Assembly: GCA_964570655.1 (NCBI GenBank)
Contig: CAZMYU010000004.1
Location: 49-64,048 of the forward strand
From: an uncultured Gammaproteobacteria bacterium
GTDB lineage: Bacteria; Patescibacteriota; Patescibacteriia; Patescibacteriales; UBA12465
Direction: 5' to 3'
Length of the DNA: 64,000 bases
Positions 17,918-56,215 of the stretch are shown piece by piece. The translations under genes and the position numbers were made by a program. The notes beneath the pieces were generated by a model. It did no database searches. It was not told the origin of the DNA and saw nothing but the letters and a program-made list of their open reading frames with translations. Position 1 is the stretch's first letter. The number at the start of each line of letters is the position of its first letter.

Positions 17918-18075
17918 TTTTTTGGTTTTTATTGATTGTTAAATTACTTTCAGAATTTAGGATTATACAAAGATATTTAGGTTTTGTCAACAGGCAGTTA
18001 TTGACGCTTGGTGATGAATAATATAAACTATTAAATCAAATTTATTTTTATAGTTTCTTAAAAAAAGGAGGCAAA

Positions 18076-19033
18076 ATGATTCTCAGGAACATCGAGTTCG
18101 GCAATTGTTTTTTGGCCTCTGGGTCAATGAATTTTTTTGGCGAAGGATATTGGTATGATAATTTTTATAAATTGTTAATGCCTGGTTTTAAAATTATTGA
18201 TCAGGTGACTTTTGTGGCTAAGACTACGACTTTTGGTCCGCGTTTGGGCAATATGCCACTGAAAGAAAATTTTCAGCCCAAGGAACTTTTCCCCAAATGC
18301 ATAAAAGTTTATCCAAGTCGAGGAGTAGTTTTAAATTCAGTGGGCTTAAGTGGTCCGGGAGCTCAAGTCTTGTTTGACACCAGGAAATGGCAGGCTATCA
18401 CTAAACCATTTTTTTTTGTCTTTTATGGCCGTGGCTAATTCCAAAGAGGAGAGATTAAAAGAGGCGAAGAGTTTTGCCAAATTGCTAGTTCAGGAATTGC
18501 CAAATTTTCAAACCAAGATTGGTTTGCAAATAAATATTTCTTGTCCCAGCACTCTTCACAAACCCAATGATCTTAGTCGGGAAGGTCTGGAGCTTTTGCA
18601 AATTTTTTCAGCCTTAGAAATTCCCTTGGATCTGAAAGCCAATGTGTTTATAGATCTGGAAACTGTCCGGGAGCTAGAGGCCAGTGGGCTATGTGATGTT
18701 TTGACTATTTCCAATACTATTCCGGCTGGTTCTTTGGGAGCTGGCATTGATTGGCGAGCTTTGTTTGACGATCAGCTTTCACCTTTGGCTCATCTAGGTG
18801 GCGGAGGACTTTCTGGAGATTTGATTTTTCCAATCGTTTTTGCCAAAATTCATAGGCTGCGCAAAGCCGGGATTCTTATGCCTATTAAAGCCAGTGGTGG
18901 AATTATAAATGTGAGTCGAGTGGAAGCTATGAAAATAGTGGGCGCTCAAGCCATTGAAATCGCTACGGTTCTCATGCTCCGTCCTTGGCGAGTCAAAGCA
19001 ATTATTGAAAGAGCTCAAAAGATCTTTGTGTAA
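18076..19033 (+). pseudogene. Dihydroorotate dehydrogenase (class 1)-like TIM-barrel gene interrupted by a +1 frameshift in a T9 run
   Basis: FGPRLGNMP, NSVGLSGPG (frame 1) then INISCPS, ISNT, GGLSG, ASGGI (frame 2); frames join at T run 18409-18417, and one T fewer gives AITKPFFLSFMAVAN; AAGGAGG SD at 18065-18071. Confidence 0.65.
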
Positions 19034-41378: not shown

Positions 41379-42074
41379 ATGGGAATCGACGATCGCTTGC
41401 TAGCCCAACCAGATTCTTCTGACCCAGATCAGTCGTCGATGTCCGAAGAGGAGAAAGAGGAAGCTGATGATGAATTGGATGATTTAGAAGAAGATGAAAT
41501 TGAAGAAGGACAAAGGGCTGGGCAATTAGCAGCTTTACAAAATTTGGCTAGAAGACAAAGCCTACTAAATGCTGAGTCTGGTGATGAGCCTGAAGCTGAT
41601 TCTGACAAAAAAACCAGCTTGGCTAGTTCGGCCAAGGAGTTTGCCGCTTTGGCTAGCAATCCAGAAAAGGCGGCCGTCAAAGAAGCTCTGAGTTCTATCA
41701 AAAAGGGTTCTTGTTCGACGGTAACTGGCAAGCTTTTAAAAATTTCTTGGACCAATTTGCTTGATTCTTTCGGTACCTCGTTGATTTATATCGATTTGCA
41801 TTTGTGGGCTAATAAGTTTTTTGGTGATCGTATTTTTTCCAATCCGGGTGAAGAGATGATTCCTGAGCCCATGGCCAAATCTATGTCCAAAAAAGACTTG
41901 GCCAAGAAAGCTAAAATTTTTGGAACAGTTGAGACCCTGGGTTGTGTTTGTCTAAACTTGGGCTGTCTAGTCCTAGTTTTAATAACCACAACCATGATTT
42001 ATTTCCTCGTTAATCCTTTGGATCTAGCTTGGGCCACGCTTAAAGATTTGATTACCAAATTTTCACCATTTTAA
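41379..42074 (+). CDS. Hypothetical protein with acidic N-terminus and hydrophobic C-terminus; first gene of the T4SS-like cluster
   Basis: 231-aa ORF; poly-acidic SEEEKEEADDELDDLEEDEIEE; C-terminal TM LGCLVLVLITTTMIYFLV. Confidence 0.5.
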   Translation: MGIDDRLLAQPDSSDPDQSSMSEEEKEEADDELDDLEEDEIEEGQRAGQLAALQNLARRQSLLNAESGDEPEADSDKKTSLASSAKEFAALASNPEKAAVKEALSSIKKGSCSTVTGKLLKISWTNLLDSFGTSLIYIDLHLWANKFFGDRIFSNPGEEMIPEPMAKSMSKKDLAKKAKIFGTVETLGCVCLNLGCLVLVLITTTMIYFLVNPLDLAWATLKDLITKFSPF

Positions 42075-42084
42075 AAAATATTAA

Positions 42085-44847
42085 GTGCGCTTGATTAATA
42101 AAATGATCAACAAAATTAATAAAAAACAGAGAATTAGTTTGGCACTCACTTTGGTAGTGCTAGCTATCTTTTTGTTTTTGCCGGGGCGAGCTGAAGCTGG
42201 TGTTGGTTCGGCGGTGGCTGGAGTACTAAGCTGGATAGTCACCGGTATTATTTATATTTTGGGCAAATTATTAATAGTGCTCATTTGGTTGCTGATCATG
42301 GTGGCTCAGTATAATGACTTTATTACCGCTGGACCAGTAGTGACCGGTTGGGTGATTGTTCGAGATTTGTGCAACATGTTTTTTATTTTAATACTTCTCA
42401 TTATCGCTTTTGCGACTGTTCTTCAAGTGGAGCAATATAGTTTCAAAAAAATGCTCCCCAAACTTATTTTGATGGCGGTATTAATTAATTTTTCCAAATT
42501 AATTTGCGGTTTGTTTATAGATTTTGCCCAGGTAATCATGCTCACTTTTGTTAATGGTTTTAAGGATATGGGCGGTGGCAATTTTACCCAAATGCTTGGC
42601 ATTGAAAATTTTGCCTCACTTACCACAGCTGATTCGGCCGGTACAGTCGATAGTTGGAGTATTTTTGGAGCCTTACTTTTGGCTATGATTTATACCATAG
42701 TGGCTTTGGTAGTCATCTTTTCTATGCTCATAGCTCTAGTTTGGCGAATTGTGATGATGTGGGTATATGTGGTCTTGTCGCCAATTGCTTATTTCTTGCA
42801 AGCCGTTCCAGGTGGTCAGAGCTATGCCAATCAATGGTGGAGCGAATTTTCCAAAAATTTGATTGTCGGGCCAGTTTTGGCTTTTTTCATTTGGTTGTCG
42901 ATTGCCTCTTTGGGGCAAAGTGATAATGATACAATGAAAGCTATTAATAAAGCTCAAGAAGCTGATCGGACTCAGAGCGGTTTGACGACTGACGTTAATA
43001 GCGCGGTCACGACCGGTATAAAACCCGATGCCGCGGTTACTAAGGCTGGTGATCCGGACAACATGATGAAGTTTATTATTTCTATCGCCATGCTCATGGG
43101 CGGACTTATGATTTCTCAGCAAATTGGCGGACAAGCTGGAGCTGCGGCTGGTAAGGGTATGGGTCGACTGAGCAAGATGGGTACCGCTGCTTTGGGTGGC
43201 GCCGCTGCTATAACTGGCGTGAGCTACATGAAAGGTTCTTGGCAAAAATATCAAGGTATGCGCAAGGCCAAAAAAGAAGCTCGTTATGACTTGGGAGCCG
43301 CCAAGATTGCTGGTGGAATTGGCAAGATTAAACAAAGCGTCGCTTTGCCTTTTAACAAGGCTGGCGAAGGATTGCAAAAGCTTAATGCTCAATATGGTCT
43401 GAAAAGATGGGGCGGTCAGGCTAGCAGATTGGATAAAGAACGGGATGATTTGAAGGAGAAAATGGCTAGTGAATCTCAGATGATTAAAGAGAGTATTAAT
43501 AATAAAGCGGATTTTTCTCATGAAGGAACTACTTATAGGTATGATGCGGCTACTAATAAATATCAGAAATTGAATCCGGTTGATAATAGTGTAAGCGATG
43601 TTCAGGAGGGTCATGATTTCTTGGCTCAGATAGAGAGTGAATATGAATCTCAAATTGAAAATAAGCAAAAAACTTCTGACACTCTTAAGGCTAAACAGCG
43701 CAAAGTTGATCGGGTTTCAAATATTGCCCTGGGAGCTGGGGGAGCCACATTGGCGCTCTTTACTGGCGGCGTTGGATTAGCTGCTTTGGGCATGGCTGGA
43801 GCTACGGCTGGATTTGGTGGTAAAAAACTTAGAAACAGAGTGGCTAATGCTGGCAAAGAAGACTTGCGGATTGCCTCTAATTACCCAATCAAAGAGATCG
43901 GTCGTTTAAAAGAAGAAATGAAAAATGATAGTGCGGCCACCTTGAATTCCAAAATGGATGATCAGTCGCTAAGTGTTTTTGAAAGAGCGGCGGCTTCGAT
44001 GGAGGCCATGAGCCGAGGATTACTGACCTCGCAAGAGGCTCGTTTGAAGCGAGATCAGATTTTGAAAGATGTACCTTTTACTGGTGGAGCGCGAGAAAAA
44101 GCCAGTAATTTGATAGACATGAATTTGGAGAAATTTTATCCAGAATTGTCTAAACCAATTAGGGATCTAAATAGTACTGATACCAAAGAAAGAAGTGGAG
44201 CCGAAAGGACCATCAAACAGCGTTATGAATCTGGAGTTTATAATCTGGAGGGACTAAGCACTAAGTCTTTAGAGGCTACTATGCCATTTTTGGCTTCTTC
44301 TATGAATACCAATGCTTTTGCCGCTCAAATGGATAACCTCAAAGATGAAAATAAGAAGATGGCTATTATCAGGTCTTTGAGGGCTATTGGAACTAATGAA
44401 GCTAAAGAAAAGATTAGTCGGGTTAGAGATTTGGATTATGCTTTTGGTGATAATAATGCCGATCCTACGATTTTAAGTGGTAAGCAGGGGGTTACTAAGA
44501 AAATGAATTTTAATGCTATTTCCGAAGCTTTTAGTAAAGGAACCAAAGAACAGCAAACTGCCTTGAAAAATTTAGTGGCTCATTTACAGTCTACTGGTTT
44601 AAGCGACACTCAAATTATTAATGATTATTTTGGTCGAGCAGCTACTGAGCTCAATAATAAATCACAGAAAACCAGAGCGCTTTTGAATAATTTAGGATTA
44701 ACTACGGCGGCAACCCCTGTTCAGACTAATCAAAATACTACTGGTAATATAACCGGAGGGGCTGGTGGCACTGGTGGCGGAGGTGGCACTGGTGGTGGAG
44801 GAGGAGGGCCAACAATTCAGACAGTTGGACCATTACATCGAATTTAA
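42085..44847 (+). CDS. Large polytopic membrane protein, VirB6/TrbL-like N-terminal domain with long soluble tail
   Basis: Signal peptide, at least 6 TM in the first about 300 aa, Gly-rich internal TM pairs, C-terminal poly-Gly; cluster context. Confidence 0.5.
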   Translation: MRLINKMINKINKKQRISLALTLVVLAIFLFLPGRAEAGVGSAVAGVLSWIVTGIIYILGKLLIVLIWLLIMVAQYNDFITAGPVVTGWVIVRDLCNMFFILILLIIAFATVLQVEQYSFKKMLPKLILMAVLINFSKLICGLFIDFAQVIMLTFVNGFKDMGGGNFTQMLGIENFASLTTADSAGTVDSWSIFGALLLAMIYTIVALVVIFSMLIALVWRIVMMWVYVVLSPIAYFLQAVPGGQSYANQWWSEFSKNLIVGPVLAFFIWLSIASLGQSDNDTMKAINKAQEADRTQSGLTTDVNSAVTTGIKPDAAVTKAGDPDNMMKFIISIAMLMGGLMISQQIGGQAGAAAGKGMGRLSKMGTAALGGAAAITGVSYMKGSWQKYQGMRKAKKEARYDLGAAKIAGGIGKIKQSVALPFNKAGEGLQKLNAQYGLKRWGGQASRLDKERDDLKEKMASESQMIKESINNKADFSHEGTTYRYDAATNKYQKLNPVDNSVSDVQEGHDFLAQIESEYESQIENKQKTSDTLKAKQRKVDRVSNIALGAGGATLALFTGGVGLAALGMAGATAGFGGKKLRNRVANAGKEDLRIASNYPIKEIGRLKEEMKNDSAATLNSKMDDQSLSVFERAAASMEAMSRGLLTSQEARLKRDQILKDVPFTGGAREKASNLIDMNLEKFYPELSKPIRDLNSTDTKERSGAERTIKQRYESGVYNLEGLSTKSLEATMPFLASSMNTNAFAAQMDNLKDENKKMAIIRSLRAIGTNEAKEKISRVRDLDYAFGDNNADPTILSGKQGVTKKMNFNAISEAFSKGTKEQQTALKNLVAHLQSTGLSDTQIINDYFGRAATELNNKSQKTRALLNNLGLTTAATPVQTNQNTTGNITGGAGGTGGGGGTGGGGGGPTIQTVGPLHRI

Positions 44848-44872
44848 GTCTGTATATTAATTTTTAATATTT

Positions 44873-45976
44873 ATGCCTACTGTTAAAACTCAGCCAAATT
44901 ATCAAAAACTTTTCAACCTGTCACCAGAGGCGCAATTTTATTTGGGCTCGGATTTAAATGGTGTTTCTAATCAGGAACTAGCCAAAGATTTTGATTTGCC
45001 TTTGGATACTATTCATAATCTGATGTTTGATCTAATTGATAATGATTTTAATTTTGATTTTTTTCAAAAGCAGATCAAAAATTTACCTCTAGGACTTACC
45101 TTTCAAAAGAATTTTCAGGCTGATTTTGTTGGTAAATTACTATTGCCTCTGCAGGGGCAGGTGGCTAGCGATTTCAAGGTTTGGTGCCAGAAACTCGGCA
45201 TTGATCCTCTCAAATATCAAAAATATGTTGATGATTTTGAAGATCTAATTGATGAAGAAAATATTGATATTTTGGATGAAGCCGCTACCAAGGCCGAGAG
45301 TTTTGTGAATTTGCAAGAGGAAAAAGATATTTTAATAGATTTGTTAACGAATGGCCTGGTCGGTATTTTGAAAAATAATCATCATGATTCGGTTATTGAT
45401 CTTAATTCCGGGCTTATTTATTGTCTCAAAAGTGACGGGGCCTTTCAGGATAAATTGCAAAAGATTCTACTTTCTAGCCCAGAAATAATTAGTCAAAAAA
45501 ATCTGGTGTTAGAAGACAAAGAAGAGCCAGGATCGGTAGCTAATTGGCTCAAGGATTTTATTAAAAACAATGGTTCGGAGATTCCGAGTTCGGTAGTTTT
45601 GTCTCGATATATTTCTGAAGGAGCCAATACCAAGGCACTTAGTGATGAAGAGAAAAAAACTTTGCGCAAATTATTGCATCTTTATAAAAATTTGGTTTTC
45701 TTTCCGGATAGCTTAGCCAATCTGCCTATGGCTGATTGGGAGATAATTCCTTTTGATAAAGATGCGGGGAGTGAAGCCCCCTCCAAAATATTAAAACCAA
45801 TTAAGGCTCCTGTCCAAACTCAAGCTCTAGAAATAGAGCCTGAAAAAGAGCCGGTTGTTAAGGGGGCCCTGCGAGGCGATGAACCACTAGACAGTTTAGA
45901 AAAGATGTTAGCCAAGTATCCTCCGCATACCTTGGAACACAAAGTAATCAAGGAACAGTTAAAAAAGGAAGATTAA
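44873..45976 (+). CDS. Hypothetical protein (cluster member)
   Basis: 367-aa ORF, acidic, no recognised motif. Confidence 0.5.
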   Translation: MPTVKTQPNYQKLFNLSPEAQFYLGSDLNGVSNQELAKDFDLPLDTIHNLMFDLIDNDFNFDFFQKQIKNLPLGLTFQKNFQADFVGKLLLPLQGQVASDFKVWCQKLGIDPLKYQKYVDDFEDLIDEENIDILDEAATKAESFVNLQEEKDILIDLLTNGLVGILKNNHHDSVIDLNSGLIYCLKSDGAFQDKLQKILLSSPEIISQKNLVLEDKEEPGSVANWLKDFIKNNGSEIPSSVVLSRYISEGANTKALSDEEKKTLRKLLHLYKNLVFFPDSLANLPMADWEIIPFDKDAGSEAPSKILKPIKAPVQTQALEIEPEKEPVVKGALRGDEPLDSLEKMLAKYPPHTLEHKVIKEQLKKED

Positions 45977-45980
45977 CAAC

Positions 45981-47237
45981 ATGATCAATTATTTAGAAGA
46001 GTTTAATAAATTACCACAAAATCTCAAAGAGCAGGTCTCCAGTCCGGCAGCTTTATGTATTTTGGGTAGCTTAGAAGATAAATATCATGTCGAGTTGGCT
46101 ACTTTAGCTATTAAAATCATGATCAAAGAAGTGGCTATCAAGAATTTGCCTCAGTATTTGATAAGTGAATTAAAGTTAGAGCCACTCCATGCTGAAAATT
46201 TGACCAAGGAATTGATTGATAAAATTTTTATTCGTTCGGCTGAATACTTGGAACTCGGAGAGGTTAACGAATACAATCGCAAAGTGGCCAATGTGGTCGC
46301 TGAGATTTTTAAAAGAGCTAATGGTCATATTGAATCTGACGCCACGGCTCGTTGGCGAGCGGATCTAGCTGGTAGGCTTTATCAGGTGCTCAAGATGTAT
46401 TTGCGAGGAGTTCGCTCCAAGATTGATACCAAAAATACTTTGCTTAAATCGGTAGATACTGGTGGCTTGGATTTAGATGCTAACTCGACTGAAGAAATTT
46501 TGAAAATTACTGAGGAACTTAAGACCGCCATGGAAATCGGCAATGATAATCCAAATATTACGGCCGATCTGCAGTCGGTTTTGGGAAAAAATGGATTGAA
46601 AGCAGATTTTGATTTTAGTCACCAGTTGCCTTCGCCGAGCGTTAAAAAGGTTATTACTCTTGATGATTTGGATTTGTCTGATAAAAAACCAGTTGCTCCG
46701 ATTGTCGCGACCCCCAGTCCTGAACCAGCTCCGGTGCCAGTGGCCAAAGAAGTTGAGCCCACCACTAAAATTATGCCAGCTTTTACTCCGATTGTCGGGG
46801 CTGAACGTAAAAAAGATTATGTAGTTAAAGATATCGGATTTATTGCTCCGGGTCGAGAATTTAGAAACGATGGTAAAACTAGAGTCGAAGATGTCAAAGA
46901 GATGTATTCTAAAAATTCGGTTGATGATTTCAAGTATATGGACCTGGCCTCTTTTCGTCGTTTGGGAGTAAGTCCCCAGGAGGCGGTCGACAAAATAAAA
47001 TATCGTTTTGAAGAATTGGCCAAGGAAGATTATGAAAAAAATCTGGCCGCTATTTCGGCTTGGCGTCAGAGCCCGGTCAATAAATGGTATTTGAAAATTG
47101 TTAATTTGAGTATTGTCGACGGGCAAGATATTGCCAAAACTATTGAGGCTCTCCGGGGTAAAGGAGTTGATTGTTTGACCTTTGAAGAGTTTGAAGCCAT
47201 TTTGGAAATGAACAAAGAGCTACGGCGCAGTCATTAA
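45981..47237 (+). CDS. Hypothetical protein (cluster member)
   Basis: 418-aa ORF starting 4 nt after the upstream stop; Pro/Val-rich linker. Confidence 0.5.
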   Translation: MINYLEEFNKLPQNLKEQVSSPAALCILGSLEDKYHVELATLAIKIMIKEVAIKNLPQYLISELKLEPLHAENLTKELIDKIFIRSAEYLELGEVNEYNRKVANVVAEIFKRANGHIESDATARWRADLAGRLYQVLKMYLRGVRSKIDTKNTLLKSVDTGGLDLDANSTEEILKITEELKTAMEIGNDNPNITADLQSVLGKNGLKADFDFSHQLPSPSVKKVITLDDLDLSDKKPVAPIVATPSPEPAPVPVAKEVEPTTKIMPAFTPIVGAERKKDYVVKDIGFIAPGREFRNDGKTRVEDVKEMYSKNSVDDFKYMDLASFRRLGVSPQEAVDKIKYRFEELAKEDYEKNLAAISAWRQSPVNKWYLKIVNLSIVDGQDIAKTIEALRGKGVDCLTFEEFEAILEMNKELRRSH

Positions 47238-47246
47238 TTTTATATT

Positions 47247-47675
47247 ATGCAACAATTTACTGTCCCCCAATTTATTGATGTGGAACCAAAGATTATTGGG
47301 CCGATTACGACTCGGCAATTTTTGATACTCCTGGGAGCGGCGATTATCATCTTTGGGGCTTATAAAATTTTTGATTTTGCTTTGTTTTTGACGATTGGAA
47401 TTTTTGTATTTTTATTAGCTGCGGTTTTTGCTTTTGTTAAAGTTAACGGTCGGCCCTTTCATTTGTTTGTATTGAATTTGGTGCAAACTTTTAGGAAACC
47501 AGCTCTGAGAGTTTGGGACCATCATGATGATAGCGTGGCTGAAAAAGATACTCGTGAGGTCAAGTTTGAAGAAGTAGTAGTCAATAAAGAATTGAATCGT
47601 AAACAAGTCGAAGAATTATCTTTGGTTATTGATACCAAGGGGCGTTATAAAGGTGAGCCGAAATCAGAGAAATAA
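47247..47675 (+). CDS. PrgI-family (VirB3-like) small membrane protein
   Basis: MQQFTVPQFIDVEPKIIGPITTRQFLILLGAAIII, the typical PrgI N-terminus, plus 2 TM. Confidence 0.65.
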   Translation: MQQFTVPQFIDVEPKIIGPITTRQFLILLGAAIIIFGAYKIFDFALFLTIGIFVFLLAAVFAFVKVNGRPFHLFVLNLVQTFRKPALRVWDHHDDSVAEKDTREVKFEEVVVNKELNRKQVEELSLVIDTKGRYKGEPKSEK

Positions 47676-47700
47676 ATTTTTAAACCATTAATTATTTTTT

Positions 47701-48381
47701 ATGTCTGAAACCAAGCCAGGGGCTAATAAAACGATCATCTCCACTCAGAAATATTTGGATATTGCTGAGGTCAAAGAGAGTACGATTATCATGAAAGACG
47801 GGACTCTCCGGGCAGTTTTGGGCGTGTCTAGTATTAACTTTGCTCTCAAAAGTGAAGATGAGCAAAATGCGGTTATCTCGGCTTATGTGAGTTTTCTAAA
47901 CAATATTAGTTCACCTATTGAAATCGTCATTCAGTCTCGGGAATTGAATATTAATCATTATTTAGAATCTCTGAGCCAAAAAGCCAAGGAGCAAACCAAT
48001 AAATTACTCAAAATGCAAACTATTGAATATATCAATTATATCAAGGAGCTAGTGAGCATTGGTAAGATTATGAGTAAAAGGTTTTATGTAGTGATCTCTT
48101 ATAATCCAAGTTCTGATGGTCATAAAACATTTTTTTCTTCACTGTTAGAGGTTTTCCGACCAGCCACTTCACTGAAACTGCGAGAATCAAAATTTGTGCG
48201 CTATAAAGGAGAGCTAGATCGGCGAGTGGAGAGTGTGGTAGGAGGACTCTCCTCACTGGGTATTGAGATCAATCGTCTGAGTACGCAAGAGTTGATTGAA
48301 TTGTTTTATCATATTTATAATCCCGAAACCTCCCAGCACGAACCGCTGGTTGATCTTAATAAATTAAAAATCGAAGCCTAA
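47701..48381 (+). CDS. VirB4-type ATPase, N-terminal domain encoded as a separate ORF
   Basis: TQKYLDIAEVKESTIIMKDGTLRAVLGVSSINFALKSEDEQ resembles the N-terminus of Gram-positive VirB4/TraE proteins. Confidence 0.55.
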   Translation: MSETKPGANKTIISTQKYLDIAEVKESTIIMKDGTLRAVLGVSSINFALKSEDEQNAVISAYVSFLNNISSPIEIVIQSRELNINHYLESLSQKAKEQTNKLLKMQTIEYINYIKELVSIGKIMSKRFYVVISYNPSSDGHKTFFSSLLEVFRPATSLKLRESKFVRYKGELDRRVESVVGGLSSLGIEINRLSTQELIELFYHIYNPETSQHEPLVDLNKLKIEA

Positions 48382-48382
48382 T

Positions 48383-50320
48383 ATGGGAATCAAAGATGTT
48401 ATCAAATCTGAAGAACTTAAACCCGAGGCTCCTAAAAGTGCTTTAGGCAGTTTGTTTTCTGTGTCAGCTCCGAAAAAAACTGGTGCCATTGAAGAAAATG
48501 TTGAGCTCACCAAGGAAATTATTGAAGAAGAACTGGCCTATCGGCGAGGTATTATTTCGGTCCGAGATTTGATTGCCCCAGCCTCACTAAAGATTCAGCC
48601 AACTTATCTAACTTTGGGCAAAAAGTTTGTTCGCACTGTTTTTGTCATTAGTTATCCGCGCTATATTAGTGTTGGTTGGTTTGCCCCGGTCATTAATTTG
48701 AACCATACTTTTGATGTGGCTATGTTTTTTTATCCAGTCAAATCATCAATTATTTTAAAACAACTCAAAAACCGCGTGGGTAATTTGGAAGCTCAGATTA
48801 TGTCGGATTCCGAAAAAGGAGCTCCGCGTGATCCGCTTCGAGAAACGGCTTTACGCGATATTGAATATTTGCGCGATGCTCTAACTCAAGGGACGGAAAA
48901 GTTTTTTCAATTTGCTTTGTATGTTACTTTTTATACCGATAGCTTAGAAGAGTTAGATAGATTGTCTGACCAGGTGGAAGACATTTTTGGCTCCCGACTG
49001 GTTTATTCGAAGCGAGCTTTTTATCAGGCTGAACAAGGCTTTAATTCTACTTTGCCGTTGGGCAACGATGAGCTGTATATTACTTTTAATATGAATTCGT
49101 CGCCAGTGGCCTCATCTTTTCCGTTTATTTCTTCAGAGCTCACTAGCGATTCGGGCATTTTATATGGCATTAATCGACACAATAATAGTTTGATTCTCTT
49201 TGATCGTTTTAGTTTGCCCAATGGTAATGCTGTGGTTTTTGCGACCGCTGGAGCTGGTAAAAGTTATGCCGTCAAACTAGAAGTTATCAGGTCGCTCATG
49301 TTGGGAGCCGATGTGATTATTATTGATCCAGAATACGAATACAAACATCTCTCGGAAGCTGTGGGTGGAACCTATATTAATATTTCTTTGGCTAGTGAAA
49401 ACAAACTCAATCCTTTTGATTTGCCTAGGTCAGTGGGCGGGGAAGCCAAGGCCAAAGATATTATTCGCAGTGCGGTTATTACCCTCAAAGGATTGATTCG
49501 GCTAATGATTGGTAATTTGAATAATGAAGAAGATTCACTAATGGATAGGGCCTTACTAGAAACTTATGCCAAAAAAGATATTACTGAAGATTCGGATTTG
49601 TCCACTATTTCTCCGCCAATTATGAGTGATTTAGAGCAAATTTTGAGTGGTATGCAGGGAGGCAACGACTTGTCGCAAAGACTCAAGAAATATACCGAAG
49701 GAACTTTTTCGGGCTTGCTTAATAATCCGACTAATGTGGAAATGAATAATCAATTAGTGTGTTTTTCGGTGCGCGACTTAGAGGATGAGCTTCGACCTAT
49801 GGCTATTTATACTATTATCAATTATATCTGGAATGTGGTGCGCAGTGAGACCAAAAAAAGAATTTTAGTTATTGATGAAGCTTGGTGGATGATGCAAAAC
49901 GAAGATAGCGCCAAATTTGTTTATGCCCTGGTCAAGCGTTGTCGTAAATATTATTTGGGGGTGACGACTATTACTCAAGATGTTAATGACTTTTTGACTT
50001 CGCCCTATGGTCAAGCTATTTTAAACAACTCATCCCTCCAATTATTGTTGAAACAATCGCAATCAGCCATTGATTTGGTACAAAAAACTTTTATGTTGAC
50101 TGAGGGAGAAAAATATTTGCTTTTGGAGTGCGGAGTCGGAGAAGGAATTTTCTTTGCTGGTAACAAGCATGTGGCTATCAAAGTAGTGGCCTCTTATACC
50201 GAAGATCAGCTAATGACTTCTGATCCCCGACAACTTTTGGAAATCGAAGAGGCTCGCAAAGAATTTGCCAAAAACCAAGGCGAGGCTGGGGCAAATGGAG
50301 TAACGGAATTACCAATATAA
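48383..50320 (+). CDS. virB4: VirB4/TraE-type type IV secretion ATPase (middle and ATPase domains)
   Basis: Walker A FATAGAGKS, Walker B ILVIDEAWWMM, GVTTITQD; YPRYISVGW block typical of the VirB4 middle domain. Confidence 0.8.
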   Translation: MGIKDVIKSEELKPEAPKSALGSLFSVSAPKKTGAIEENVELTKEIIEEELAYRRGIISVRDLIAPASLKIQPTYLTLGKKFVRTVFVISYPRYISVGWFAPVINLNHTFDVAMFFYPVKSSIILKQLKNRVGNLEAQIMSDSEKGAPRDPLRETALRDIEYLRDALTQGTEKFFQFALYVTFYTDSLEELDRLSDQVEDIFGSRLVYSKRAFYQAEQGFNSTLPLGNDELYITFNMNSSPVASSFPFISSELTSDSGILYGINRHNNSLILFDRFSLPNGNAVVFATAGAGKSYAVKLEVIRSLMLGADVIIIDPEYEYKHLSEAVGGTYINISLASENKLNPFDLPRSVGGEAKAKDIIRSAVITLKGLIRLMIGNLNNEEDSLMDRALLETYAKKDITEDSDLSTISPPIMSDLEQILSGMQGGNDLSQRLKKYTEGTFSGLLNNPTNVEMNNQLVCFSVRDLEDELRPMAIYTIINYIWNVVRSETKKRILVIDEAWWMMQNEDSAKFVYALVKRCRKYYLGVTTITQDVNDFLTSPYGQAILNNSSLQLLLKQSQSAIDLVQKTFMLTEGEKYLLLECGVGEGIFFAGNKHVAIKVVASYTEDQLMTSDPRQLLEIEEARKEFAKNQGEAGANGVTELPI

Positions 50321-50339
50321 ATTAACTAATTTAAATTAT

Positions 50340-50948
50340 ATGCTAGACGATCGTAAAAAAATGGGCATCTTTATTGTGGGGGCAGCTCTGATTATTTTGA
50401 TTGCCATTGCTGTTTTTGTTTATATCTTTAATAAAAAAAATCAGGCCGCGACAGTTCCAGAGCAAAATGCTTCGGCGCTCACCTCTGATAAATTATTTGC
50501 TGAAGCTCAAGCCAACAAACCCAAGGTTAATTATACTTTTGATCCAGCTATGGAGGCCGGTCGAGTGTGGGGTCGTGAAGATGTGCGGAAAATGGCTATG
50601 ACTTTTGCTTCGCGCTTTGGCTCCTATTCTAACCAAGGAAATTACACAAATTTTCAGGATTTAGAAATTTTTATGACTGACCAGATGAAATCATCAGCTC
50701 AAAGCTATGTGGCTAGCTTGCGAGCCAAAAATAATGGCGATACTAATTATCATGGATTTAATACGACGGCAGTTTCAGCTGATATTGTTAGTTTCGATGA
50801 CAGTGCCGGCAGTTCTGAGATTTTGGTGACTACTCAAAGAGTGGAAACAATTGGTACTGGAAGCCCAAGAAATTTTAATCAAAATATCAAAATTAATTTG
50901 AAAAAAATAGATGGTCAGTGGTTGGTAGATGCTGCCTTGTGGCAGTAA
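50340..50948 (+). CDS. Bitopic membrane protein, possible VirB8-like (NTF2-like) component
   Basis: N-terminal TM then an about 160-aa soluble domain ending in beta-rich ILVTTQRVE...KINLKKIDGQWLVD; assignment by context only. Confidence 0.3.
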   Translation: MLDDRKKMGIFIVGAALIILIAIAVFVYIFNKKNQAATVPEQNASALTSDKLFAEAQANKPKVNYTFDPAMEAGRVWGREDVRKMAMTFASRFGSYSNQGNYTNFQDLEIFMTDQMKSSAQSYVASLRAKNNGDTNYHGFNTTAVSADIVSFDDSAGSSEILVTTQRVETIGTGSPRNFNQNIKINLKKIDGQWLVDAALWQ

Positions 50949-50950
50949 TT

Positions 50951-51034
50951 AAGATTAAAAGATTGAAAGATTAAAAGATTGAATGATTATTTAATTAAAA
51001 ATTTTTCAATCTTTCAATTTTCAATTTTTCAATT
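50951..51034. repeat. AT-rich inverted repeat built from GATTGAAA / GATTAAAA words
   Basis: AAGATTAAAAGATTGAAAGATTAAAAGATTGAA ... TTTTCAATCTTTCAATTTTCAATTTTTCAATT. Confidence 0.75.
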
Positions 51035-51042
51035 ATACACTT

Positions 51043-51339
51043 ATGCCTAAAAAAACTTTATCAACGGTTAGTTTGAACCATAAAAAATCTAATAATTCTG
51101 ACCAGCATCATTACAGTGAATATTTTTGGCAGATAACTATTTTGGCTGGAATAGTTTTGGGTTTTAGTTTGGTAATTTGGTCTGTCAATTTAGAGGATTT
51201 CAATAGACAACAGGCTTCAGCGGGTGATCAAACTCCGGCTATCTTTGAAAAGCATGCTGGTGATGTTCCGGCCGTCCAGGCTTGCGGTAATGATCCACTG
51301 ATTACTTCCGGTGATTGCGCAGTTGGCGATTCCAAATAA
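51043..51339 (+). CDS. Small membrane-anchored hypothetical protein
   Basis: 98-aa ORF with one TM (ITILAGIVLGFSLVIWSV). Confidence 0.45.
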   Translation: MPKKTLSTVSLNHKKSNNSDQHHYSEYFWQITILAGIVLGFSLVIWSVNLEDFNRQQASAGDQTPAIFEKHAGDVPAVQACGNDPLITSGDCAVGDSK

Positions 51340-51353
51340 TTATTAAATAAAAA

Positions 51354-52479
51354 ATGTTTTCTAATAAGAAACAATTTTTTGCTTTTACGCTAATAGAGCT
51401 ACTCGTTGTCATTGCTATTATTGGTATTTTGGCGACTGTTAGCGTGATTGCTTTAAATAATGCTCGGGCCAAATCACGAGACACCAAAAGAGTCGCTGAC
51501 ATCAAGCAATTAACCACGGCTTTAGCCCTCTATTATAATGACAAAAAAGAATATCCCATAAACTTTAACAGCTGGGCAACCACTTTATTCTACTAGTTTG
51601 GATGGCTCTGGGGCGGTGGTGACCTCTACCTATCTTTCTTCTATTCCGAGTGCTCCCAGCACTGTGGACGGAGCTAATTGTACTAGTGGCACCAATGCTT
51701 ATAGTTATGGAACCTCTTCTGATTTGCAATCTTATACCTTGTCAACTTGCGTCAATAATTCTCCGCAAACTAGCCAGAATGTTTCTTATATTGCTGATCC
51801 CAACCAGGTTCAGCCTTGTGGTGCTTATGTAATTAATTACGAGGGCAAAACTTATCGGACCGTGCAGATTGGTACTCAATGTTGGATGAAAGATAATTTG
51901 AATGTCGGAATTAGAGTTGATAATTCTAACCCCAATGCTTGTACTCAAGATGATGCTAATAATGGAATTATTCAAAAATATTGTAAATCAAATCTAGAAT
52001 CCAATTGTGATACTTATGGAGCCTTGTATTGCTGGCATACTGTTATGGCCTTTGCTTCCACTAGCGACCAGGTAGCTACTCCTACCGGGGTCAATACTCC
52101 TCATCGGGGCATTTGTCCGCCTGGCTGGCATGTTCCTACTGATGCTGAATTGGGAACTTTAGAAACTTATGCTACTAATCCTGGTCAGGCTTGTGACCAA
52201 AGCAGAAATAGCGCCCCGCCAGCAGCTAGCTGTTTGGGGGCGGGGACCAGATTGCTTTCCGGTGGTTCATTGGGTTTTGATATGCAATTGGCCGGTACTA
52301 TTGGTTATGATGCTGCCGCTCAAGGGACTTATGGCGAATTGCAATCGGTTACCACTTCGGCTTATCCCTCATCTTATTTCCGGCAATTTACTAATGCTTC
52401 CTCGACTATTGGTCGCCAAACTTGGTGGGGTCATTCTTGGCGCTACAATGGCAAATCATTGCGGTGTATTAAAAATTGA
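51354..52479 (+). pseudogene. Type IV pilin-like protein with C-terminal FISUMP domain, split by a +1 frameshift near 51559-51597
   Basis: FTLIELLVVIAIIGILA prepilin N-terminus (51354-51596); frame +1 continues YLSSIPSAP... then YRTVQIGTQCWMKDNL, YGALYCW, CPPGWHVPT, SLRCIKN (51598-52479). Confidence 0.65.
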
Positions 52480-52511
52480 TTTTTAGTCTAGATCTGTTAA
52501 GATAAGTTATT

Positions 52512-53894
52512 ATGGCCTCTAATGTAATTTATACTTGCTCGAAGTGCGGCGCCCAATTTCCAAAATGGAGTGGGCGTTGTTTGGAATGTGGAGCTTGGGG
52601 AACCATTGGCGAAGAGACAGTCGAAAAAGAAGGAGAAGTGCGGGGGCTCAAATCTTTGGATTTGAAAAAAATAAAAGGAGCTAATTTGGTTGATCTCAGC
52701 CAGGTCTCGGCTTTGAGTAGTGAACGCTTGCAAACGGGTTGGCCGGAAATAGATCGAGTTTTAGGTGGCGGTTTAGTAAAAGGCTCGCTTATTTTGCTGG
52801 CTGGTGAGCCAGGAATTGGTAAGTCTACTTTAGCCAATCAAATCACCGATTTACTTGGGGTCAGACCCCAAGGGGAGGGGTCTGACCCCAGCTCTATAAT
52901 CTATGTTTCTGGTGAAGAATCAGCTAGTCAGGTCAAGACTCGCTTAGAAAGATTAGGCTGTGATTTGCATAAGACCAAGTTTATTGGTGAAACTCACTTG
53001 GAAAAAATCATGAGCTCTCTTTTGGAATTGAAACCAGCGCTGGTGATTATTGATTCTATTCAAACTATTTATTCGTCGGAGTTGCCTTCGGAGGCTGGCA
53101 GCTTGAATCAAATTCGAGCAGTGGCGGTCAAGTTTTTAGAACTAGCCAAGACCCATGATATTACTATTTTTCTCATCGGGCATATTACCAAAGACGGGCA
53201 AATCGCTGGGCCCAAATCGCTCGAGCATATTGTGGATACCGTGCTGTATTTAGAAAATGATCAGACCCATTTTTCGATTTTACGAGCAGTCAAAAATCGT
53301 TTTGGTTCGCTCAATGAAATTGGTGTACTAGAAATGACTAGCAGTGGGTTTAAGGAAATAAAAAACCCTTCAGCGATTTTTATTGAAGGGATGAACGAAG
53401 AAATTGCCGGCTCAGCGATGGGGGTGATTTTGGAAGGAACTCGGCCTTTTATTGTTAATATCCAGGCCCTAGTGACCAAAACTATTTTTGGTTATCCCCA
53501 AAGAAAATGTGCGGGTTTTGATGTGAATCGACTTCAGATTTTGTCAGCGGTGCTGAGTCGTAAAAATAAAATCAATTTAAGTACTCAGGATATCGTCCTC
53601 AATTTAGTGGGTGGGCTCAAGACTAATGATCCGGCTTTAGATTTGGCCGCGGTGATGGCCATGGTCTCGTCGTATTTGAATCAACCGCTTCCGCGGGATT
53701 TAATTATTATTGGTGAGATTGGACTAGGCGGAGAAGTTCGGCCGGTCAAAAATTTAGAAACGAGAGTTAAGGAAGCTGTTAAATTAGGTTTTAAAACTAT
53801 TATGGTCCCGGATTCTCTAAATAGTATTAGCGGAGTTAAATTATTGAAAGTGAAAAATATTAGCGAAGCCTTGAAATTATTATCAAATAAGTAG
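52512..53894 (+). CDS. radA: DNA repair protein RadA/Sms
   Basis: CSKCGAQFPKWSGRCLECGAWGT zinc finger, GEPGIGKST, KNRFG, Lon-like C-terminal domain. Confidence 0.95.
   Translation: MASNVIYTCSKCGAQFPKWSGRCLECGAWGTIGEETVEKEGEVRGLKSLDLKKIKGANLVDLSQVSALSSERLQTGWPEIDRVLGGGLVKGSLILLAGEPGIGKSTLANQITDLLGVRPQGEGSDPSSIIYVSGEESASQVKTRLERLGCDLHKTKFIGETHLEKIMSSLLELKPALVIIDSIQTIYSSELPSEAGSLNQIRAVAVKFLELAKTHDITIFLIGHITKDGQIAGPKSLEHIVDTVLYLENDQTHFSILRAVKNRFGSLNEIGVLEMTSSGFKEIKNPSAIFIEGMNEEIAGSAMGVILEGTRPFIVNIQALVTKTIFGYPQRKCAGFDVNRLQILSAVLSRKNKINLSTQDIVLNLVGGLKTNDPALDLAAVMAMVSSYLNQPLPRDLIIIGEIGLGGEVRPVKNLETRVKEAVKLGFKTIMVPDSLNSISGVKLLKVKNISEALKLLSNK
52857..52889. repeat. 33-nt paired-palindrome element lying in frame inside radA
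   Basis: GGGGTCAGACCCC-aagggga-GGGGTCTGACCCC = codons GVRPQGEGSDP between Walker A and YVSGEES. Confidence 0.8.
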
Positions 53895-54109: not shown

Positions 54110-56215
54110 TTATTCTAGATGTATATTTCTCTCAAATTCACCTAGCTTTTCTTTTAGAAGCGGGTGATTTTTTAGTTCGGGGTCACTATTTATTAAATTA
54201 ATTGCTTCGTTTTGGGCTTGTTGGATGAGCGGTAGGTCGAAAAGAGAGGCAATTTTTAGTTCCGGGAAACCGCTTTGAATCGTGCCATAAATTTCACCCG
54301 AACCGCGCAGTTTCAAATCTTCTTTGGCCAGTTCAAAGCCATCCTGGAATTTGACCAAGGCATTTAAACGACTCAGACTTTTGGCTGAAGGCAAGCTAGA
54401 GCTGGCAAATAGAAAACAATAGGACTTTTCGCTACCCCGACCAACTCGACCGCGGAATTGATGGAGTTGGGCTAGACCAAAACGTTCGGCCCCTTCAATC
54501 ATCATAATTGTAGCGTTAGGAATATCGACGCCCACTTCTATCACTGAAGTCGAAATTAAAATGTTAATCTTGTTGGCCAGGAACTCGGACATAATTTTTT
54601 CTTTTTCTGGCGATTTTAATTTTCCATGGAGCAGGCCGATTTTCAAGTCTGGAAAAACATGTTTGTCCAAATATTCAAATTCACTAGTGACCGATTTGAT
54701 TCCACTGGTATCGGATGGGTCAATTAGCGGACAAACCACAAAAGCTTGGCGACCATTTCTGATTTCTTTTTTGATAAAATCATAAGCCATTCGACGATTA
54801 TTTTCCGGGATTATTTTGGTGAGAATTATTTGTCTATCTTTTGGTTTTTCTTTGATTAGCGAAATATTCAAATCGCCATAAATAGCTAGAGCGAGAGAGC
54901 GGGGAATGGGCGTGGCCGTCATTGATAAAAAATGGGGAGTATTTTGGTTGCCAGAAGATTTTTTGAACTGTAATAATTTTTGTCGTTGTCTAACGCCAAA
55001 ACGATGTTGTTCATCGACGATAATGAGCCCCGGATTTTTAAAGTTTATTTTATCTTGAATGAGCGCTTGAGTACCAATTATAATATCGGCTTCTAGGGCG
55101 ATATCGGGTCCGGATAACTTTAATTTTTTGTCACTTGGCGGATAAATCTTTTTTTGACTGCGGGTGATTAGACCAATTTTGATGGGCTCGTCTTTTAGGA
55201 ATTTACTAAGAGTTTGGAAATGTTGACTCGCCAGAATTTCGGTGGGGGCCATTAGAATGCCTTGGAATTTATTTAGAGCCGTGTTTAGCAGGGCCAAGGT
55301 CGCTACTAGGGTTTTGCCACTGCCAACGTCGCCTTCCAAGATTCTAGACATGGGCTTGGTATTTTCTAAGTCTTGGATTATTTCCCAGGCTGATTTTTTT
55401 TGATCATTGGTTAAGGTGAATGGTAGGGAAGTCACAAAATTTTTGATAGCTGATTCTTTAAATTTGATAATTGGTGCCGTGGCCTGGGAATTATCTTTTT
55501 TGATTATTTGACTGATTAGTTGTCGCAAAAATAATTCTTCAAAGCTGAGCCGTTGTTTGGCGCTCAGTAGCTCGGCTTCGTTTTCGGGAAAATGAATTCT
55601 TTTAAGAGCCTCTGGCAGGCTTAACAATTTTAATCTTTTTTTGATATCAATTGGCAACCAATCGGCAATGTTTTTGGCGAGTGGCAGAGCTTGGCTAATA
55701 AAAAAACGCAATTGTTTGGGAGTGAGACTGCTAGTTGTTGAGTAAACCGGAACAATGCCTTGAGTGTGGATTAAATCTCGCTGGCTTGTTAATTTTTCAT
55801 AGACCGGTGAGATCATGGCTACTTGTCCGCGATTGTCGCTTAGTTTTCCGGCCAGTGATATAGTGTCGCCCACTTTTAAAGTTTTGCTAATATAGGGTTG
55901 GTTGAACCAAATAATTTTTAGATAGCCGGTTTCGTCTTTGACCACAGCCTCAGTTAGCGACATTTTGCGAAAATGACTGCGTTTGTTTTGGAGCAATTCT
56001 ATTTCGGCGATAATGTTGACTGGTTCGTTAATTGGTAATTGATTAATAGCCTGGGTGGCGCCGTATTTGTCATAGCGAAAAGGGTAATAAAAAAGTAGCT
56101 CAGAAATATTTTCTAAGCCGAGTTTTTTGAGACGGCTGGCTATAGCCGGGCCAACGCCACTAATTTCTGATATTTGGCTGTTTAAAGTGAGCATTTGAGG
56201 ATTGATTATACTCAT
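54110..56215 (-). CDS. recG: ATP-dependent DNA helicase RecG
   Basis: Wedge domain, GDVGSGKT Walker A, VDEQHRFG, QLHQFRGRVGRG. Confidence 0.95.
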   Translation of the reverse strand: MSIINPQMLTLNSQISEISGVGPAIASRLKKLGLENISELLFYYPFRYDKYGATQAINQLPINEPVNIIAEIELLQNKRSHFRKMSLTEAVVKDETGYLKIIWFNQPYISKTLKVGDTISLAGKLSDNRGQVAMISPVYEKLTSQRDLIHTQGIVPVYSTTSSLTPKQLRFFISQALPLAKNIADWLPIDIKKRLKLLSLPEALKRIHFPENEAELLSAKQRLSFEELFLRQLISQIIKKDNSQATAPIIKFKESAIKNFVTSLPFTLTNDQKKSAWEIIQDLENTKPMSRILEGDVGSGKTLVATLALLNTALNKFQGILMAPTEILASQHFQTLSKFLKDEPIKIGLITRSQKKIYPPSDKKLKLSGPDIALEADIIIGTQALIQDKINFKNPGLIIVDEQHRFGVRQRQKLLQFKKSSGNQNTPHFLSMTATPIPRSLALAIYGDLNISLIKEKPKDRQIILTKIIPENNRRMAYDFIKKEIRNGRQAFVVCPLIDPSDTSGIKSVTSEFEYLDKHVFPDLKIGLLHGKLKSPEKEKIMSEFLANKINILISTSVIEVGVDIPNATIMMIEGAERFGLAQLHQFRGRVGRGSEKSYCFLFASSSLPSAKSLSRLNALVKFQDGFELAKEDLKLRGSGEIYGTIQSGFPELKIASLFDLPLIQQAQNEAINLINSDPELKNHPLLKEKLGEFERNIHLE

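Follow-up and report, generated by a model that had tools for sequence, protein, structure and literature searches.

The locus at 51354-52479 of the DNA stretch analysed here (64,000 nucleotides, referred to as the window) is a modular type IV pilin gene, probably from a Patescibacteria genome, with a one-base insertion, and it is probably a recently inactivated paralog within its family. The architecture, a pilin module joined to a C-terminal FISUMP domain, is real; it has been catalogued before and is highly abundant in this lineage. The protein obtained when the extra base is taken out is referred to below as the repaired protein.

Two reading frames of one gene

The gene starts with an ATG at 51354 on the forward strand and in frame 0 reads MFSNKKQFFA followed by FTLIELLVVIAIIGILA; this first open reading frame, ORF1, spans 51354-51596 and comprises 80 codons. 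Behind the leader, Ala at -1 is encoded by GCT at 51381-83, Phe at +1 by the codon at 51384-86 and Glu at +5 by that at 51396-98. The +1 frame has a TAA at 51559-61 and then 305 open codons, from 51562 to a TGA at 52477-79 (ORF2), a length that is not attributable to chance since the window has a G+C content of only 39%. An earlier, sequence-only reading had described the two frames, the opening at 51562 and the frame-0 stop at 51594-51596, all of which are present in the sequence, and had quoted four strings as hallmarks of FISUMP, all of which are found in the +1 frame. The features of the locus are the following.

51354..51383, forward strand: prepilin leader peptide MFSNKKQFFA, 10 amino acids, with Lys5 and Lys6 and with Ala at -1 (sequence)
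51384..51560, forward strand: mature pilin N-terminus, residues 11-69, in frame 0, with Phe+1, Glu+5, hydrophobic alpha1-N and amphipathic alpha1-C (PF07963, TIGR02532, AlphaFold2)
51560..51562, forward strand: frameshift site, AAA where homologs have AA (ATA-ACN, Ile-Thr), i.e. one extra A (homolog comparison; JGI contig L081)
51594..51596, forward strand: frame-0 stop TAG; the last 11 residues of the 80-amino-acid product (NFNSWATTLFY) are out of frame (sequence)
51562..51861, forward strand: +1 frame, beta-sheet head with conserved Cys109 and Cys132, and linker to FISUMP (model, alignment)
51862..52479, forward strand: +1 frame, FISUMP (Fib_succ_major) domain up to the TGA at 52477-79, with 9 of the 12 cysteines (PF09603, TIGR02145, model)

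The two parts have been deposited separately, as an 80-amino-acid ‘prepilin-type’ protein and a ‘TIGR02145 family’ protein of 271 or 293 amino acids; the cluster of the latter includes the JGI/IMG protein P0121 (293 amino acids). ORF2 has no ATG, and its candidate starts, TTG at 51598 or GTG at 51616/51619, are not accompanied by a Shine-Dalgarno-like sequence. Neither a signal peptide nor a hydrophobic N-terminus is present, and ORF2 holds 12/12 of the cysteines of the protein. As it carries the beta-head of a pilin together with FISUMP, ORF2 cannot stand alone as a secreted protein; the possibility that it is an independent secreted protein, raised in the sequence-only reading, is ruled out by the lack of a good start and of a hydrophobic N-terminus and by the 12 cysteines. 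A scan for promoters and terminators gave results no better than chance. The practical value of these observations is in annotation: both ORFs should become one frameshifted modular-pilin gene.

The pilin module

ORF1 matches PF07963 (N_methyl) with 31.4 bits (cutoff 21.2) and TIGR02532 with 24.2 bits (cutoff 16.3), so that the class III signal and pilin N-terminus previously read from MFSNKKQFFA/FTLIE are confirmed. The short basic leader, the small residue at -1, Phe+1 and Glu+5 are those of a type IV pilin. Ala at -1 had been taken as unusual; instead it is the norm in this family, being found in 75 of the 116 homologs with a recognisable motif, alongside Gly in 40 and Ser in 1; in these homologs, the residue at -1 lies at a median position of 8. 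Among the NCBIfam models, GspG, PilA and ComGC match residues 11-101 below threshold.

Structure prediction of the fused protein, which had been proposed as a check, gave a confident fold with helix, beta-head and FISUMP in this order. The AlphaFold2 model of the repaired protein (91-sequence alignment; mean pLDDT 88.1, pTM 0.83) has a helix at residues 13-64 (pLDDT at least 87), a beta-head made of strands 77-82, 88-94, 117-120, 127-133 and 143-147, and the FISUMP domain from about residue 155. Within the head, C109 and C132 are conserved in at least 90% of the aligned sequences. The long helix and disulfide-bonded beta-head of a type IV pilin are found together in the repaired reading only.

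In a profile search of the PDB, the best match of alpha1 was ‘Geopilin domain 1’, the PilA-N of Geobacter (E 1e-17, residues 2-67), with GspG (1e-12) and classical PilA/PilE behind; entry 6vk9 was also among the matches. Geobacter PilA-N and PilA-C, which are encoded by two separate genes, are both expressed and co-assemble. A similar division of labour could be imagined here, with a split pilin made from two functional genes, ORF1 being PilA-N-like and ORF2 supplying a head and FISUMP partner like PilA-C. PilA-N is a short, alpha1-only pilin similar to ORF1 in both length and sequence: mature ORF1 has 70 amino acids and the PilA-N chain 2m7g has 61, and the best PDB matches of the family profile are PilA-N chains. 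However, the second half in the window has no ATG, Shine-Dalgarno-like sequence or signal peptide, yet contains 12 cysteines typical of an exported protein; 11 out-of-frame residues end ORF1, the promoter and terminator scan stayed at chance, and the frameshift is unique to this copy, none of the listed homologs being split. A functional pair of this kind is therefore very unlikely.

The FISUMP domain

ORF2 matches PF09603 (Fib_succ_major) with 83.8 bits (cutoff 33.9) over profile positions 1-187 of 187, and the repaired protein matches TIGR02145 with 77.8 bits (cutoff 41.65). The domain is full-length, lies above cutoff and retains the conserved FISUMP cysteines, C176, C210, C218, C254, C280, C293 and C371. 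We take IPR011871 to be the InterPro entry for FISUMP. The full-length domain and conserved cysteines are common to the window gene and the FISUMP proteins (TIGR02145/PF09603) of Fibrobacter and Bacteroidota; the latter, however, usually carry a lipoprotein signal, in contrast to the prepilin signal of the window gene.

A model of the FISUMP domain by itself reached a pLDDT of 89.4 and a pTM of 0.88. Foldseek searches of the PDB with the full and domain-only models gave nothing at E<=0.001; the C-type-lectin-like chains 1v4l_B and 2pf5_D, considered as fold relatives of FISUMP, appeared only at E>4 and were rejected. No solved FISUMP relative was found by the PDB profile search, and a lenient Pfam scan of the domain detected no second family (DUF1566, FGE-sulfatase, Lectin_C). 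The same fold is present in phage proteins (BFVD match, E 7e-9). The FISUMP module may serve in ligand binding or adhesion, or as the lectin suggested in the sequence-only reading.

Among the targets of diversity-generating retroelements (DGRs), Fib_succ_major/DUF1566 makes up an established class, CLec2, and is described as surface-exposed, extracellular and disulfide-bonded (PMC5758913). FISUMP is also the most divergent part of the protein among homologs. Both points would fit a locus that is part of a DGR system, with FISUMP as its variable target. Such an element is refuted for the window, in which there is no template-repeat-like copy of the gene (the best non-self match in the 64 kb is 23 nt, E 0.06) and no reverse transcriptase among the 39 ORFs scanned with Pfam, and membership of this locus in a DGR system is hardly credible.

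Homologs and paralogs

A homolog search with the repaired protein as query scored 8000 candidates, of which 1540 reached E<=1e-3. Where organisms are named, most are Candidatus Falkowbacteria or Patescibacteria, and the proteins go under the source names ‘FISUMP domain-containing’, ‘prepilin-type N-terminal cleavage/methylation domain-containing’ and ‘general secretion pathway protein G’. Both domains lie in one frame in 115 of the 120 listed homologs, according to precomputed Pfam annotation. The intact fusions that the sequence-only reading had proposed to look for in relatives thus exist, and its interpretation of the two frames as one ancestral pilin-FISUMP gene is upheld.

The top match, P0001, is the window's own ORF2 (100% identity over 72% of the query), and identity is 49-56% for the next best matches. 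This search (1540 proteins, E<=1e-3) yielded no intact ortholog. A scan of genome contigs with the repaired protein likewise gave no ortholog among the matches listed, where generic FISUMP motifs dominated and the best locus was 38% identical. Intact paralogs are close at hand: P0004 (360 amino acids) and P0013 (399 amino acids) are encoded outside the window on the same 95,998-bp NCBI contig, which makes for redundancy with at least two intact copies. Within the 64-kb window, this is the only pilin N-terminus.

The eleven closest homologs share with the gene about 78% identity over residues 1-69, about 64% over residues 70-150 and about 44% in FISUMP, a gradient which, judged from these alignments, agrees with a carrier that is conserved and a display module that diversifies. 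Multiple copies are present in other genomes too: in a Falkowbacteria MAG (GCA_026396835.1; L085, 7881-11083), three tandem modular pilins are found between enolase and gyrB, in the order N_methyl+Laminin_G_3 and then N_methyl+FISUMP twice. From this arrangement, related pilin carriers appear to exchange one display module for another.

Position and origin of the frameshift

Removal of one A from the AAA at 51560-62 yields a 374-amino-acid protein reading ...YYNDKKEYPITLTAGQPLYSTSLDGSG..., in which the junction YYNDKKEYPITLTAGQPL is residue-identical to that of the intact homologs; the stretch across the junction in the repaired reading is EYPITLTAGQPLY. The repaired window reads ...EYPITLTAGQPLYSTSLDGSG, as against ...DKKEYPITLTAGQPLFSTSLDG in the intact homologs P0003, P0004 and P0014, whose wider junction stretch is ...YYNDKKEYPITLTAGQPLFSTSLDG.... 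At the DNA level, P0014 (locus L082) has CCG ATA ACA CTC ACT where the window has CCC ATA A AC TTT AAC, so that the lesion consists of one additional A, placed after the codon for Ile69 and before that for Thr70. The repair proposed in the sequence-only reading, one A out of 51560-51562, is borne out to the exact site by the protein and DNA of intact homologs. That reading had also divided the pilin from FISUMP by frame. It was right that the two frames make up one gene, but the break falls inside the pilin module, directly after alpha1 (residue 69), and not at the boundary between pilin and FISUMP.

No uninterrupted frame for a complete pilin is present, either in the window, where the extra A at 51560-62 leads to the stop at 51594-96, or in a second assembly. 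The JGI contig Ga0565073_049621 (L081, 1530 bp, sample 3300076594) corresponds without gaps to window positions 51122-52651, with a single mismatch, and shares both the AAA and the two ORFs (80 and 293 amino acids); the 80-amino-acid product is recorded from NCBI and JGI alike. The single SNP between the two is a G>A at 51721, giving D123N. This substitution was considered as a mark of relaxed constraint and found uninformative, Asn being present at this position in 18 of 90 homologs. As the second assembly shares the AAA and yet differs by one SNP, a random assembly indel is argued against, although the JGI contig and the NCBI MAG may not be fully independent, since sister samples carry other members of the pilin-FISUMP family and both data sets could come from one project or sample series.

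Two scans of metagenome contigs, one with a pattern across the frameshift that accepted AA or AAA and the other with a degenerate back-translation of the gene-specific YCWHTVMA, each gave 0 matches.

The window retains the consensus at 67 of the 68 columns that are at least 90% conserved in 90 homologs, the sole exception being Q330 (consensus W). Judged by this conservation, the lesion would be either very recent or an error. The latter reading holds that the extra A arose as an indel during sequencing or assembly and that the gene is intact in the organism, where it encodes the 374-amino-acid pilin-FISUMP protein. An intact gene with an error in it would look as this one does, with the downstream frame, the conserved columns and the 12 cysteines preserved and a repaired junction that matches the homologs exactly, and the source is a metagenome-assembled contig. 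The very short JGI contigs around these genes moreover suggest a region that is hard to assemble. The A3 run, however, is not a typical context for short-read indels, no other clear frameshift that might betray an error-prone assembly was found in the window, and the same A was recovered from the second assembly. An artefact is on balance rather unlikely; the favoured and probable explanation is that one member of a redundant set of paralogs has recently become a pseudogene.

More generally, short-read assemblies appear to break around pilin-FISUMP paralogs: the JGI contigs L081-L084, of 1.4-1.7 kb, each contain a pilin-FISUMP gene alone, while the same proteins are found on NCBI MAG contigs of 20-130 kb.

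Possible bypass of the frameshift

A frameshift may also serve as a regulatory device, production of the full-length pilin being switched or tuned through programmed +1 ribosomal frameshifting, through slippage during transcription or through phase variation by slipped-strand mispairing. On/off switching is frequent in families of surface adhesins that have many paralogs, and the frame downstream of the break is intact. Any correcting event would have to fall within 51562-51593, where the only run is A3, and such a run is not a repeat tract of the kind that would make the gene phase-variable. A longer run, the A6 at 51543-48, lies upstream of the +1-frame TAA at 51559-61, and slippage there offers no rescue because the shifted frame runs into this stop codon. 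Likewise, a +1 slip of tRNA-Pro on CCC-A leads to the TAA at 51559-61, a slip from ATA to TAA gives no re-pairing, and no slippery codon pair re-pairs after this stop. At the frameshift point, the 120 listed homologs are unsplit without exception; a signal confined to a single gene would not be a conserved recoding site. With no usable run, no re-pairing and no conserved recoding signal in homologs, both phase variation and programmed frameshifting are unsupported, and a regulatory role for the frameshift is highly improbable.

The sequence-only reading had left three explanations for the break side by side. Decay fits best, the assembly indel is weakened by the recovery of the same A from the second assembly, and phase variation is the one that finds no support.

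It is conceivable that the frameshifted state is itself kept and functional. The alpha1-only product could act as a PilA-N-like mini-pilin, becoming part of the filament, capping it or poisoning it; or AA and AAA alleles could provide a population-level on/off switch for one of several FISUMP-tipped pilins, and with it host choice by an episymbiotic CPR bacterium. The chance of this is slim.

Genomic surroundings

The pilin gene lies 14 bp downstream of an ORF for a 98-amino-acid membrane protein, at the end of a same-strand cluster resembling a type IV secretion system (T4SS). This cluster occupies 41379-51339 (forward strand), directly upstream of the pilin gene, and includes the following.

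42085-44847 (920 amino acids), 44873-45976 and 45981-47237, forward strand: large ORFs without a Pfam match
47247-47675, forward strand: PrgI/VirB3-like gene (Pfam)
47701-48381, forward strand: 226-amino-acid ORF with a weak TraC_F_IV match (TraC-N-like; Pfam)
48383-50320, forward strand: VirB4/TraG-P-loop ATPase (Pfam)

The junction at VirB4 in the window resembles coupled genes rather than a frameshift. In a relative (L086), a pilin-FISUMP gene is found near several PF18895 T4SS_pilin genes; together with the window, this makes two cases, too few to call a linkage with T4SS genes.

Downstream of the pilin gene, a 460-amino-acid ORF (52512-53894) is presumably radA, and a 701-amino-acid ORF on the opposite strand (54110-56215) is presumably recG, both being read from the ORF alone. 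The rest of the window has a housekeeping character, with PBP2, HrcA, DnaK, DnaJ, an F-type ATP synthase, GroES/GroEL and pyrimidine enzymes. Concerning the last of these, a 227-amino-acid ORF at 18350-19033 (forward strand) matches only residues ~118-287 of dihydroorotate dehydrogenases (DHODH), and an overlapping upstream frame at 18022-18438 (forward strand, in another frame) is without DHODH similarity. From these matches, the ORF at 18350-19033 could represent either a divergent gene or a pyrD that has been truncated or has decayed.

A Pfam scan found no prepilin peptidase, PilB, PilC, PilM or PilT among the 39 window ORFs scanned, to which the search for these genes suggested in the sequence-only reading was applied. 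The pilin-FISUMP genes of relatives also lie amid housekeeping genes rather than in pil operons.

Comparison with known modular pilins

Modular pilins have been argued to polymerise via their pilin module and to be probably exposed at the filament tip (Raynaud et al. 2021, PNAS, PMC8179133). In Dataset S1 of that study, the combination IPR012902-IPR011871 ranks fifth in frequency among modular architectures, with 40 InterPro proteins in 2021; IPR011871 is grouped with modules of no clear function, and Candidatus Falkowbacteria is among the representative species with which the 15 most frequent architectures are illustrated (PMC8179133). The repaired protein combines the defining features of this class, an IPR012902 motif and a domain that is not specific to pilus biology. 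Like the modular pilins described by Raynaud and colleagues, it has a class III signal with the N_methyl motif, a small pilin module and one grafted C-terminal domain. Unlike those listed, the window copy is broken by a 1-nt insertion, and the 1540 proteins found here at E<=1e-3 far outnumber those of that listing.

Experimental evidence for the function of modular pilins comes from Streptococcus sanguinis, where PilB mediates adhesion and a PilA-PilC complex binds glycans (PMC8179133, PMC9934059). PilB (vWA) and PilC (lectin) follow the same carrier-plus-module logic as the window gene, although their grafted domains (vWA, concanavalin-like) are unrelated to FISUMP. A patescibacterial parallel is provided by the Saccharibacterium Nanosynbacter lyticus TM7x, in which deletion of pilX2 halves host binding (PMC11623550). 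The TM7x minor pilins PilX1 and PilX2 are akin to the window gene in having large lectin-like C-terminal domains (PMC11623550). However, these are made up of a beta-jelly-roll and a beta-propeller rather than FISUMP, and the canonical PilD signal, present in the window gene, is absent in PilX1 and PilX2.

Implications

For the intact form of the gene, whose architecture is established and whose function we infer, the following pathway can be proposed. Prepilin peptidase would cut the short basic leader after Ala10; anchorage of the subunit in a type IV filament would then rest on Phe+1, Glu+5 and the roughly 50-residue helix, behind which comes a small disulfide-bonded beta-head. On display along the filament, the C-terminal, cysteine-rich FISUMP domain would serve in ligand binding or recognition, and it would probably be scarce there or sit at the tip. 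In the window copy, the extra A after codon 69 (ATA-A-AC) would limit the product to 80 residues, of which only alpha1 is pilin, and the 305 downstream codons would most likely be unmade, or useless in the cytoplasm; it is in this sense that the window copy is regarded as a recently inactivated paralog.

Modular pilins provide a plausible route to host recognition for ultrasmall episymbiotic bacteria, and the FISUMP-tipped class is a large one. The window copy adds little to this; it shows turnover of the family by gene inactivation, with a conserved carrier and a diverging FISUMP domain.
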